The position numbers and the translations under genes were made by a program. Positions 14,746-17,867 of a stretch of DNA of 64,000 nt are shown in pieces; the first letter of the stretch is position 1; each line of letters opens with the position of its first letter. The stretch is taken from positions 4,770 to 68,769 of the forward strand of contig CAVAWW010000003.1 in NCBI GenBank assembly GCA_963592475.1. The letters run 5' to 3'. Source of the stretch: a bacterium. GTDB lineage: Bacteria; Bacillota; Clostridia; Oscillospirales; Acutalibacteraceae. The notes under the pieces were generated by a model. The model made no database searches, was not told where the DNA came from, and saw only the letters and a list, made by a program, of their open reading frames with translations.

Positions 14746-15264
14746 ATGTTTAACAAAGCTTCCGACACGCTGTCGGATTATTACTATTTTCAAGCAGATA
14801 TAAAGGGAAACAGCAGCGTTCCGGATATGTCCGGCACGGCGAGATTTTATCCCTGGCTCGACGGAACAATGGTCGAAATAGAACTCACCGGTATGCCGAC
14901 AAGAAACGAGCCGTTCGCAGTTCATATCCACGAGGGCGCAGTATGCGAACCCGAGGCATTCACAAGCGCCGGAATGCATCTGAAAAGCACGGATGTCGAG
15001 CTTGAAGTATCGCCCGAGCGGCACGAGACAAATATAAAAAGCACGCAGAATCACCCCGGACATATGGGCGATCTGCCGAGCATTTTCTCGAACAACGGCT
15101 ACGCATATATGGCGACCTACACCGACCGCTTTATCCCCCGACAAGTAGAAGGGAGAACCGTGATAGTTCACAGTTCCCCCGACACTTTCACTTCAACCGA
15201 TACATTCGGCAGCCGCATCGCCTGCGGAGTTATACGCCGAATGGAAATAAGCAAATCACTTTAA
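14746..15264 (+). CDS. Cu/Zn superoxide dismutase family protein
   Basis: VHIHE, H..HMGDLP, TVIVH and RIACG motifs; RBS GGAGG; no signal peptide. Confidence 0.85.
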   Translation: MFNKASDTLSDYYYFQADIKGNSSVPDMSGTARFYPWLDGTMVEIELTGMPTRNEPFAVHIHEGAVCEPEAFTSAGMHLKSTDVELEVSPERHETNIKSTQNHPGHMGDLPSIFSNNGYAYMATYTDRFIPRQVEGRTVIVHSSPDTFTSTDTFGSRIACGVIRRMEISKSL

Positions 15265-16911
15265 TTTTCTCAGATCGTTCGCTCTTATCTCAGTGCGTCT
15301 GATCTTGCCGTTGACGGTCTTGGGAAGAGAATCAACAAACTCGATGACCCTGGGATATTTGTAGGGCGCGGTCTCTTTCTTGACATATGTCTGAAGCTCT
15401 TTTTTCAGCTCCTCGGAGCCCTCAAATCCGGGCTTGAGAACTATGGTCGCCTTGACGACATTGCCTCTTATCGGATCGGGAAGACCGGTTACGGCGCACT
15501 CAAGGACCGACGAATGCTCGGTAAGAACGCTTTCAATCTCGAACGGTCCTATTCTGTAGCCGGAGGATTTTATAACATCGTCTGTTCTGCCGACATACCA
15601 GTAGTAGCCGTCCTCGTCTTTCCACGCGGTGTCGCCGGTATGATAGAGTCCGTCGTGCCACGCCTCGGCAGTCTTCTTCTCGTCGCGGTAATAGCCCTTG
15701 AACAGACCGAAGGGAACCTTGGGTTCGGTATGAACAACGATTTCGCCGGTGACTCCGGGAGGTACCGGTCTGCCGTCTTCGTCAACGATATCAACATCGT
15801 AGTGCGGAACGGGCTTGCCCATCGAGCCGGGCTTGGGCTCCATCCCGACGAGGTTTGCGATAAGCAGAGTTGTCTCAGTCTGACCGAAGCCTTCCATGAG
15901 CTTTATTCCCGTCTCCTCGTACCACTTGTTGAAAACATCGGGGTTGAGGGCTTCGCCTGCGATGGTGCAGTATTTCAGCGAGCTCAGATCATAGGAAGAT
16001 ACATCCTCCTGAAGCATAAATCTGAACATCGTGGGCGGGCAGCAGAGGCTGGTGATTTTGTACTTTTCAAGTATCGAAAGAATCTCGGATGCGTGGAACT
16101 TGTCATAGTCATAGACAAAAACGCAGCTCTCCATAAACATCTCGCCGTAAAGCTTGCCCCAAACCGCTTTGCCCCAGCCGGTATCGGCTATCGTCAGATG
16201 GATGCTGTCTGCGGTGACATCGTGCCAATACTTGGCGGTAGTCAGATGCGCGAGGGCATATGTATGCGCGTGCATAGCCATCTTGGGGTTGCCGGTGGTG
16301 CCGGACGAGAAATAGACTATCATGGGTTCATAATATTTCGTATCAACTCTTTCGAGATGCGAATCGGCTTTTTCCATGTCAGTCATGAAGTCGTCCCAAC
16401 CGTCGCGCTTGCCGTTGACGATGATTCTCGTCTCTATCGAGGGACACTCCGGCAGAGCCTCATCGACCTGCTCGGCAATGTCGCCGTCGCCCGTGCAAAT
16501 AACCGCCTTTATTGTGGCGGCGTTCGCTCTGTAGACTATATCATGCTTCTGCAGCATGAATGTTGCGGGGATAATAACCGCACCGAGCTTGTGCAGAGCG
16601 AGAATAGTGAACCAGAACTGATAGTGGCGCTTGAGGATAACCATGACCATGTCGCCCTTTTTGATTCCCTTTTCGCGCAGCATATTGGCAGTCTTGTCGC
16701 TGTAATATTTCAGGTCGCCATAAGTGAATATTCTCTCTTCACCCGCCGGGTTGCACCAGAGGAGCGCACGTTTGTCCGGTTCGGCAGCCGCGATGGCATC
16801 GACAACGTCATAAGCAAAATTGAAATTTTCAGGGCATTTGAGGGTATAATCAACTACATGTCCGTTTTCGTCATATACCTCATCCACAAAGTTTTTATTT
16901 AAATCAAGCAT
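15256..16911 (-). CDS. AMP-forming short/medium-chain acyl-CoA synthetase
   Basis: YFSSGTTGNPK, GFGQTET, YHTGD, GRTDDVIKSSGYRIGP and PKTVNGK adenylation motifs. Confidence 0.93.
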   Translation of the reverse strand: MLDLNKNFVDEVYDENGHVVDYTLKCPENFNFAYDVVDAIAAAEPDKRALLWCNPAGEERIFTYGDLKYYSDKTANMLREKGIKKGDMVMVILKRHYQFWFTILALHKLGAVIIPATFMLQKHDIVYRANAATIKAVICTGDGDIAEQVDEALPECPSIETRIIVNGKRDGWDDFMTDMEKADSHLERVDTKYYEPMIVYFSSGTTGNPKMAMHAHTYALAHLTTAKYWHDVTADSIHLTIADTGWGKAVWGKLYGEMFMESCVFVYDYDKFHASEILSILEKYKITSLCCPPTMFRFMLQEDVSSYDLSSLKYCTIAGEALNPDVFNKWYEETGIKLMEGFGQTETTLLIANLVGMEPKPGSMGKPVPHYDVDIVDEDGRPVPPGVTGEIVVHTEPKVPFGLFKGYYRDEKKTAEAWHDGLYHTGDTAWKDEDGYYWYVGRTDDVIKSSGYRIGPFEIESVLTEHSSVLECAVTGLPDPIRGNVVKATIVLKPGFEGSEELKKELQTYVKKETAPYKYPRVIEFVDSLPKTVNGKIRRTEIRANDLRKLK

Positions 16912-16950
16912 ATGTTAAAAGTCCCTTCGTTGAGTTGTTGAATAATGATT

Positions 16951-17529
16951 TTATTTCTTCTCCGTTTTCTTGAGGATTATTGCAAGAAAAACGCAGTCCT
17001 CGCCGCCGGTCGCAATCATTCCGTGACCGTGAGCGGAATTATAAAGTACGGCATCACCGGCGTTGAGTATCTCAACATGATCCTCGAATGCTACCTTGAG
17101 ACTGCCGCTGATAATATAATCAAATTCCTGTCCCTCGTGGGTTGAGAGGGTTATGGGCTTATCCTGATCCTCTTCCGAATACGGCGCGGTTACAAGGAAA
17201 GGCTCGCAATATTTGTCCTTAAAGCGATAGCCGAGATGAGAATAATTGAATCCCGTGCGGCGCTTCATCGGCAGTCCCTCGCCCTTGCGGACTATTGAAT
17301 AGAACGAAAGTCTCGGGTTATCACCGGTCAGCAGTTCTATCATATCAACATCGAACTTCTCGGCGCATTTGTAAATAAATGTGAAAGAAAAATCGACTTC
17401 GCCATTTTCGGCGGCAATATATTCTTCCGGGGTGCAGTCAACGGTCTGAGCCATCTCTTCCACGCTGTAGCCCATGATCTCGCGCAGGTCGCGTATTCGC
17501 TGTGCGATCTCAGTGATGATAATTTCCAT
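16951..17529 (-). CDS. XRE-family HTH + cupin domain regulator
   Basis: IAQRIRDLRE HTH N-terminus; HEGQEF...H.HG cupin motif; ATG 17529 after AAGGAG. Confidence 0.9.
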   Translation of the reverse strand: MEIIITEIAQRIRDLREIMGYSVEEMAQTVDCTPEEYIAAENGEVDFSFTFIYKCAEKFDVDMIELLTGDNPRLSFYSIVRKGEGLPMKRRTGFNYSHLGYRFKDKYCEPFLVTAPYSEEDQDKPITLSTHEGQEFDYIISGSLKVAFEDHVEILNAGDAVLYNSAHGHGMIATGGEDCVFLAIILKKTEKK

Positions 17530-17561
17530 AATTAAACTCTCCTTCTCAATAAAAATATAAT

Positions 17562-17812
17562 ATAAAAACCGCCCCAAACAAAATGTCTGGGGCGGCTGTT
17601 AACCGCGGTACCACCCAAATTCAGTGCTTTTTTACAGCACCCTCAAGCTCCAATAAGCTCTTGACTTTAACGCAGCCTTACGGAAACGCCTACTCGCTCG
17701 AAGTTTTCGGGTCTCTGCTCAGGAGTGATTCGATTACCCGGTTCATACATCCGTTTTCACCAACCACGGACTCTCTGCGGTACTTATCCGGAATCTTTCT
17801 CCGTCATCGCCT
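17562..17812 (-). ncRNA. T-box riboswitch (transcriptional, class I), probable Ile (AUC) specifier
   Basis: Minus strand shows stem I with GA motif, AGAGA and GGTGAAA loops, specifier loop GAAUCA, stem II with AGUA, a CGUUA box, stem III, the T-box AATTTGGGTGGTACCGCG and a terminator GCCGCCCCAGAC/GTTTGGGGCGGT-TTTT. Confidence 0.93.
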
Positions 17813-17838
17813 TTATGGGCAAGATTCAGTTTTTACAA

Positions 17839-17867
17839 AGTATATAACCGAAAAGTCGGTTTGTCAA
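17839..17867 (-). promoter_or_regulatory. SigA-type promoter driving the T-box leader
   Basis: TTGACA-N17-TATACT; the spacer contains the palindrome AACCGA-N4-TCGGTT. Confidence 0.8.

Follow-up and report, generated by a model that had tools for sequence, protein, structure and literature searches.

We analysed a 64,000-nucleotide (nt) stretch of contig CAVAWW010000003.1 (assembly GCA_963592475.1; Acutalibacteraceae), hereafter the window, within which all coordinates are numbered, and found a two-gene unit encoding an XRE-cupin protein and an acyl-coenzyme A (CoA) ligase behind a T-box leader with an isoleucine (Ile) specifier. We propose with good confidence that uncharged transfer RNA for isoleucine (tRNA-Ile) induces activation of 2-methylbutyrate, and that carboxylation by the 2-oxoacid:ferredoxin oxidoreductase Vor and transamination by IlvE then give Ile. 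In this scheme, a shortage of Ile would leave tRNA-Ile uncharged, and the uncharged tRNA would pair with the AUC specifier and the UGGU bulge of the leader, blocking the terminator so that transcription continues. The ligase would then form 2-methylbutyryl-CoA, which Vor would carboxylate with CO2 and reduced ferredoxin, and IlvE would aminate the resulting 2-oxo acid to Ile. What we observed, and what this proposal builds on, is the T-box leader and its reading as Ile, the ligase family, the occurrence of vor and ilvE in the genome, searches that did not find ilvC and ilvD, and gene clustering in relatives.

The leader matches the T-box covariance model RF00230 over its whole length (112.5 bits against a gathering threshold of 93, E 4.5e-24) and is the sole Rfam match in the window. 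When stem I was folded alone, GGAG/CUCC and GAUU/AAUC pairings enclosed a GA-AUC-A loop, and AUC lies where a specifier is expected by the rule in PMC7778990, within 2-4 nt of the loop's 3' end. The antiterminator with its UGGN bulge has a folding energy of -9.7 kcal/mol as drawn and competes with a terminator hairpin of 14 pairs and -24.1 kcal/mol (Table 1). A promoter scan of 4 kilobases (kb) returned 6 sites where 4.4 were expected by chance, and the candidate that we list is put forward on its quality and position only. The two open reading frames (ORFs) are separated by 40 nt. An earlier note on this DNA had described a consensus promoter, a full T-box with terminator, the two ORFs and the framing of the specifier loop by GGAG/CTCC and GATT/AATC; all of its coordinates hold, and its pairings were reproduced. 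We rejected control by CodY: a weak CodY-like stretch can be read by eye upstream of the -35 element, but matches to PF06018 were absent in five genomes.

Table 1. Features of the T-box-led unit, with positions in the window.
Feature	Position	Strand	Basis
Candidate sigma-70-type promoter, TTGACA-17-TATACT	17839..17867	-	11/12 consensus matches; 23 nt upstream of T-box
T-box leader (stem I, II, IIA/B, III, antiterminator)	17585..17816	-	RF00230, model positions 1-219
Specifier codon AUC (Ile), then A and the CUCC stem strand	17727..17729	-	Folding and register calibration
Antiterminator with UGGUACC bulge (17613-17607)	17588..17617	-	RF00230 match and folding
Intrinsic terminator hairpin (17597-17567) and U-rich tail	17557..17597	-	Hairpin search and folding; overlaps antiterminator
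XRE-fold and cupin protein, 192 residues	16951..17529	-	HTH_3 (PF01381) and Cupin_2 (PF07883), both over cut-off
AMP-forming acyl-CoA synthetase, likely MacsMa type, 551 residues	15256..16911	-	AMP-binding and AMP-binding_C
Predicted acyl-pocket segment W246-G247-K248-A249-V250-W251	16159..16176	-	Alignment; G247 codon 16173-16171
Terminator-like hairpin at end of two-gene unit	15151..15180	-	13 pairs, T-rich tail

To read the specifier we took the three bases lying at a set distance from the kink-turn, a register that we calibrated on the other 12 of the 13 T-boxes in the source genome (G000; completeness 95.9%). This offset gave the matching amino acid for nine of the 12 (proS, pheS, tyrS, cysE-cysS, leuA, serS, thrS, ileS and alaS) and was one base off for two (asnB and an ABC transporter), where the names of cargo genes are readings of their translations, with a model check for leuA alone. 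To read leaders of homologous ligases we made a profile from 12 ligase leaders together with those 12 T-boxes of the source genome. Set 1 comprised 175 distinct ligases, 167 of which were kept after removal of 8 short or broken ones; 75 had full T-boxes (57 AUC, 13 GUA, 5 GUC), 3 had partial ones, 7 were cut by a contig end and 82 had none. A held-out set 2, fetched later and drawn mainly from 150 genomes of the class (92 with the ligase), contributed 151 distinct ligases with 65 full T-boxes (37 AUC, 28 GUA), 6 partial, 4 cut and 76 none. The 140 full leaders thus comprise 94 AUC, 41 GUA and 5 GUC, with no codon other than those for Ile and valine (Val).

The specifier could also be read one base later as UCA, for serine (Ser), which would leave the unit unrelated to Ile. 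Whatever base comes after AUC, the +1 frame reads Ser, as it does in all AUC leaders (64 UCA, 30 UCC), and PMC7778990 describes alternative frames in some T-boxes. We nevertheless find the Ser reading scarcely credible. The same frame yields a UAG stop in 41 Val leaders, the ileS T-box of the source genome has an AUC-A-CUCC context identical to that of the window leader, and UCA makes up 6% of Ser specifiers, whereas AUC makes up 99% of Ile specifiers, in PMC7778990. The -1 frame is spread over 8 codons, and both shifted registers were rejected. The AUC specifier named in the earlier note therefore stands; its argument that the UGGU bulge fits a tRNA with an A discriminator, as tRNA-Ile has, is weak. 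UGGU also occurs in the serS T-box of the source genome, even though the tRNA-Ser genes there end in G-CCA, and, by a simple pattern search, in 6/12 other T-boxes, and hence does not single out Ile. Two other leaders of the source genome may be recorded here. One, with a CUC (leucine, Leu) specifier, lies ahead of a 392-residue membrane protein that is a candidate Leu transporter (L003, G000:C10:7091-7338), and one ahead of an ABC transporter reads UGG (Trp) by eye (L008, G000:C48:12331-12586).

The closest solved relative of the ligase is PDB 3ETC (688 bits, E 5.6e-206, residues 21-546), followed by human ACSM2A (407 bits). 3ETC is MacsMa, a Methanosarcina acetivorans medium-chain acyl-CoA synthetase; in its description, 2-methylbutyrate is the preferred substrate, and the residues named are Trp259 and, in the CoA site, Gly459, Tyr460, Arg490, Tyr525 and Tyr527 (PMC10455477). 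Trp259 (residue 282 of the 3ETC chain, the offset of 23 being set by YHTGD) corresponds to W251 of the window ligase. The alternate pocket Trp and the Gly replacing Trp414/416 of Acs are both present, the EGFGQ segment is identical to that of MacsMa, and the CBAL-like CoA site is conserved as G451, Y452, R482, Y517 and Y519. W251 and G343 are invariant in 167/167 homologues of set 1. Both enzymes have Gly at the pocket position discussed below; they differ in that Lys461 of MacsMa is Arg in the window ligase, and MacsMa is archaeal and without a T-box. The acetyl-CoA synthetase model TIGR02188 gave 292 bits, short of its cut-off of 725, and the ligase has Gly at the position equivalent to V310. 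We conclude that it is likely a MacsMa-type acyl-CoA synthetase activating 2-methylbutyrate.

The top NCBIfam model for the ligase is MbcS (NF047394, 519.7 bits), which raises a different role for the same product. MbcS of Staphylococcus aureus activates 2-methylbutyrate and isobutyrate and feeds FabH and lipid synthesis (PMC10026030). On this view the ligase would, whenever Ile runs short, provide 2-methylbutyryl-CoA to prime anteiso fatty acids of the membrane; such a shortage would lower the supply of primer too, Ile being its usual source. We consider this highly improbable, because the score falls under the MbcS cut-off of 850, the ligase is linked in relatives to vor and ilvE rather than to fab genes, and fabH (TIGR00747) was not found in the source genome or in 36 same-genus genomes, with 9 of the 61 genomes searched containing it. 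A kinase route of acid activation was also rejected, as no butyrate kinase scored over the cut-off in five genomes.

Genes for the proposed later steps are present in the source genome. VorB of 3-methyl-2-oxobutanoate:ferredoxin oxidoreductase (NF005507; 540 bits, cut-off 399) lies in a vor cluster on contig C4, and IlvE (400 bits, cut-off 250) is encoded on contig C19. Formation of Ile from 2-methylbutyrate and of Val from isobutyrate is known in rumen microbes, as PMC7356843 and PMC10658910 report. A genome search for Vor and the ilvBN, ilvC and ilvD genes, as the earlier note had suggested, found Vor and ilvBN; ilvC, ilvD and leuB were found neither in the source genome nor in G023 (97% complete), with control searches positive in 14/14 genomes. 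The source genome also gave no leuC, and ilvC and ilvD were not found in G011 either. The ligases of G023 and G011 are 97% and 90% identical to the window ligase, and both genomes have ilvB matches and no ilvD, which argues against an assembly gap. As an observation on what is kept, the source genome has ilvB-ilvH-cimA (G000:C28:18519-22278) and leuA behind a Leu T-box (C67:356-2116), either pathway remnants or genes with another use.

These genes bear on whether the ligase might instead activate propionate or another short straight acid, with 2-oxobutyrate feeding an IlvBN-IlvC-IlvD route to Ile. An Ile T-box is equally compatible with this, ilvBN and cimA are retained, and MacsMa can adenylate propionate. 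However, with many acids of this kind MacsMa stops before the CoA step is completed (both points from PMC10455477), ilvC and ilvD were found in none of the three genomes, and the Val-led paralogues and the Gly/Ala switch described below would be left unexplained. We regard the propionate route as quite unlikely.

Gene order in relatives ties the ligase to the two later enzymes. Across 61 related genomes, the ligase is present in 56, VorB in 53 and both in 52, and in 28 of these 52 the ligase lies within 6 kb of vorB. T-box-led ligases of relatives can stand directly upstream of ilvE and vor: in set 1, ilvE and/or vor follow on the same strand within 6 kb of 7 Ile-led and 8 Val-led ligases, 32 ligases with long flanks have neither there, and 28 flanks were too short. 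In G040 (100% complete, 10 contigs) an Ile-T-box ligase, a Val-T-box ligase, vor and ilvE form one run, and this genome gave no match to ilvB, ilvC, ilvD, leuB or fabH. We infer that a unit responding to Ile or Val shortage and containing vor and ilvE is sensible only if both run toward synthesis. No T-box was found beside vor/ilvE clusters without a leading ligase in 26 loci, the lone match being 2 kb off on the opposite strand. Among 39 near-complete relatives, which are kin and not independent samples, 23 have the ligase and Vor without ilvD, 9 have both with ilvD, 5 have ilvD only and 2 have neither. Together with the relationship to MacsMa and the presence of Vor and IlvE, this arrangement supports the salvage of branched acids that the earlier note had suggested.

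The vor and ilvE clusters have further features of their own. A protein of 218-228 residues with a GHYGSGKT motif is encoded upstream of a ferredoxin-like gene and vorB in 23/23 vor clusters read far enough (L083:8829-9485, G000:C4; L069:7677-8363); it has no NCBIfam match at 1e-10 and is possibly an accessory factor of Vor. Many vor/ilvE clusters (L069:105-3990, L212-L223) also encode a protein that resembles LeuA without passing any cut-off, as well as an 838-residue protein made of an N-terminal domain and an acyl-CoA ligase (PRK12583-like, below cut-off), whose equivalent in the source genome is two adjacent genes (G000:C7:43299-45821). This set is a candidate for handling isovalerate and Leu. 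In one genome (L102, G003:C92) a ligase behind a Val (GUC) T-box is interrupted by stops, yet still lies upstream of ilvE and vor.

The specifier also covaries with one residue of the ligase. Position 247 aligns with the Val following Trp in the acetyl-CoA synthetase motif; V310 of Salmonella Acs lines the acyl pocket and controls specificity, according to PMC8511477 and PMC6298115, and the available part of PMC3438747 holds nothing on the pocket. By alignment, residue 247 is predicted to line the acyl pocket. When all columns of set 1 were scanned, this position stood out, with Gly in 56/57 Ile-led ligases and Ala in 18/18 Val-led ones, which form four separate clades. Held-out set 2 gave Gly in 36/37 Ile-led and Ala in 28/28 Val-led ligases, and four of its six partial T-boxes had a readable AUC, three of these with Ala at 247. 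Combining the full T-boxes with the four readable partial hits, minus one short sequence, Ile-led ligases have Gly in 92/97 and Ala in 5/97, and Val-led ligases have Ala in 46/46. Since 2-methylbutyrate is isobutyrate plus one carbon, Gly in the Ile-led enzymes would provide the additional room. On a tree built without column 247 there were 5 independent contrasts, a mean of 4.5 in the same direction and 0 opposite (sign test p 0.06-0.125). The 158 homologues without a T-box carry 84 Ala, 54 Gly, 19 Leu/Met and 1 Val at this position. In the source genome, a second XRE-cupin and ligase pair (G000:C22:7955-10198; L082:5938-8211), 49% identical and without a T-box, has Ala there, and this paralogue likely handles isobutyrate for Val.

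A broad branched-acid ligase could serve Ile, Val (and Leu) alike, with the specifier and residue 247 marking lineages only. Such an enzyme would account for the five Ile-led ligases with Ala, MbcS accepts both 2-methylbutyrate and isobutyrate, and the independent-pair test is unable to reach p<0.05. Against it, the switch recurs at five places in the tree and is never reversed, and many genomes have one Gly-type and one Ala-type ligase, often in tandem and each with its own T-box. We judge this explanation very unlikely, and it overlaps with the 2-methylbutyrate proposal on the salvage role itself.

Several groups of ligases deserve separate mention. The Leu/Met-247 class is T-box-free (19/158 plus one truncated sequence; L101, L108, L124, L150, L187, L205, L295, L299, L327, L332, L338 and others) and possibly has a third substrate. 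Records labelled Methanomassiliicoccales or Thermoplasmata, both archaeal (L162, L182, L184, L195, L204), have XRE-cupin and ligase genes as adjoining Gly-type and Ala-type copies. Records labelled Ruminococcus and Alistipes (L169-L206) form a clade whose ligases are of the Gly type, fused and not preceded by a T-box.

The partner gene was called an XRE-cupin regulator in the earlier note. Its helix-turn-helix (HTH) and cupin domains are borne out, but its role as a regulator is doubtful. The net charge of HTH helices 2-3 is -7 in the window protein and averages -4.4 over 280 sequences, whereas 15 further XRE domains of the source genome range from -3 to +1, and these acidic helices suggest loss of DNA binding. 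H131, E135 and H169, a predicted metal site, are conserved at 99-100% in 279 homologues, and in alignment the H-x-G-x-E motif and the final His fall on the His-Glu-His triad of hydroxypropylphosphonate epoxidase (HppE), a non-heme iron enzyme. Profile and fold searches place the Vibrio regulator 1Y9Q and HppE (1ZZ9) about equal, both over the full length. An alignment-based structure model (predicted local distance difference test, pLDDT, 90.6) gave a template-modelling (TM) score of 0.69 to 1Y9Q and 0.49 to HppE; the TM-score thus favours 1Y9Q, whereas the metal motif favours HppE. The helical domain of HppE is structural. Identity to either protein is about 20%, at which the activity and substrate of HppE are not transferable, and the strongly acidic HTH and frequent fusion to the ligase belong to the XRE-cupin protein. 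Among 317 ligase homologues, 133 carry the module as a fusion and 155 have it as a separate protein; in 29 it was not detected. We conclude that the XRE-cupin protein is probably not a DNA-binding regulator and that it is likely a metal-binding partner acting on the ligase instead of on DNA. One Wolbachia family in NCBIfam matched the HTH weakly (31 bits against 300), which was set aside as generic HTH similarity.

A wider scheme can be drawn from these comparisons, which we offer tentatively and would sooner expect to fail in some part than to hold throughout. The unit may belong to a modular salvage system of gut and rumen Clostridia in which changes of tRNA sensor and pocket went hand in hand: AUC and Gly247 would serve the route from 2-methylbutyrate to Ile, GUA or GUC and Ala247 that from isobutyrate to Val, with at least five switches. 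The XRE-cupin protein, often fused, would be a metal-binding module with an acidic HTH, not a transcription factor, that controls the ligase directly, and the T-box-free Leu/Met-247 class would act on isovalerate or straight acids.

A number of points weigh against our proposal that the unit makes Ile from 2-methylbutyrate. Control by the tRNA, the substrate, the direction of Vor, flux into Ile and every activity are predictions from sequence. The placing of residue 247 in the pocket depends on an alignment, and the pocket rule has the five Ala exceptions, three of them from partial T-boxes; position 250 separates the Ile-led and Val-led groups equally well; and with only 5 phylogenetically independent contrasts, p cannot fall below 0.05. 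No tRNA-Ile gene was found in the source assembly, and for 158/317 homologues the flank that was read contains no T-box. In the source genome, vor and ilvE are unlinked to the ligase and without T-boxes, ilvBN, cimA and leuA are retained, and 4% of the genome is missing. Finally, 9/32 near-complete genomes with the ligase and Vor keep ilvD, so salvage is not always obligatory.

The window leader shares the whole model, the AUC specifier, the UGGN bulge and the competing terminator with class I transcriptional T-boxes such as the ileS and ilv/leu leaders of Clostridia, and differs from known T-box leaders in its cargo. In the RegPrecise table of T-boxes (PMC3766115 supplement 2), the rows of 20 Clostridium genomes show no XRE-cupin and acyl-CoA ligase cargo, and none is listed for the T-boxes of C. 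difficile (PMC11477304 Table 2). We found no description of a T-box combined with an acyl-CoA ligase in the literature searched, which included terms in the text and supplements of Wels 2008 and stopped short of the surveys Vitreschak 2008 and Gutierrez-Preciado 2009 and the TBDB entries. Reductive carboxylation by Vor with IlvE is established in rumen anaerobes and methanogens, where branched acids are known precursors of Ile, Val and Leu; VorB and IlvE are likewise present here over their cut-offs, and what is proposed here from genomics is the activating enzyme and the tRNA-based control. T-boxes ahead of genes for 2-oxoacid:ferredoxin oxidoreductases are reportedly mentioned in the two surveys, and that part would then be less novel. 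None of the parts is of a new kind, and labelling had already established the pathway; it is their combination that the sources searched do not describe. A T-box over a regulator gene, which the earlier note had thought unusual, has precedents. The alaR gene of alaRT is presumably a regulator gene. Five Clostridium genomes have an alaRT T-box in the list of PMC3766115 supplement 2, and two regulator genes stand under T-boxes in PMC2494555 supplement 1.

On the other side of the ligase, a Cu/Zn superoxide dismutase-like gene (window 14746-15264, + strand; PF00080 over cut-off) converges on it, with a 9-nt overlap at the ligase stop.

Branched short-chain acids are required for growth by many anaerobes of the gut and rumen, and labelling has shown that they are converted to Ile and Val; the activating enzymes and their control are poorly mapped. 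The locus offers a candidate gene, a candidate control circuit and a single residue that may predict the substrate, and it would add acyl-CoA ligases to the list of T-box cargo. The 23/39 near-complete relatives that have the ligase and Vor and no ilvD match suggest that uncultured lineages without ilvC and ilvD live by cross-feeding on branched acids, which would matter for culture media, for genome-scale models and for rumen nutrition.

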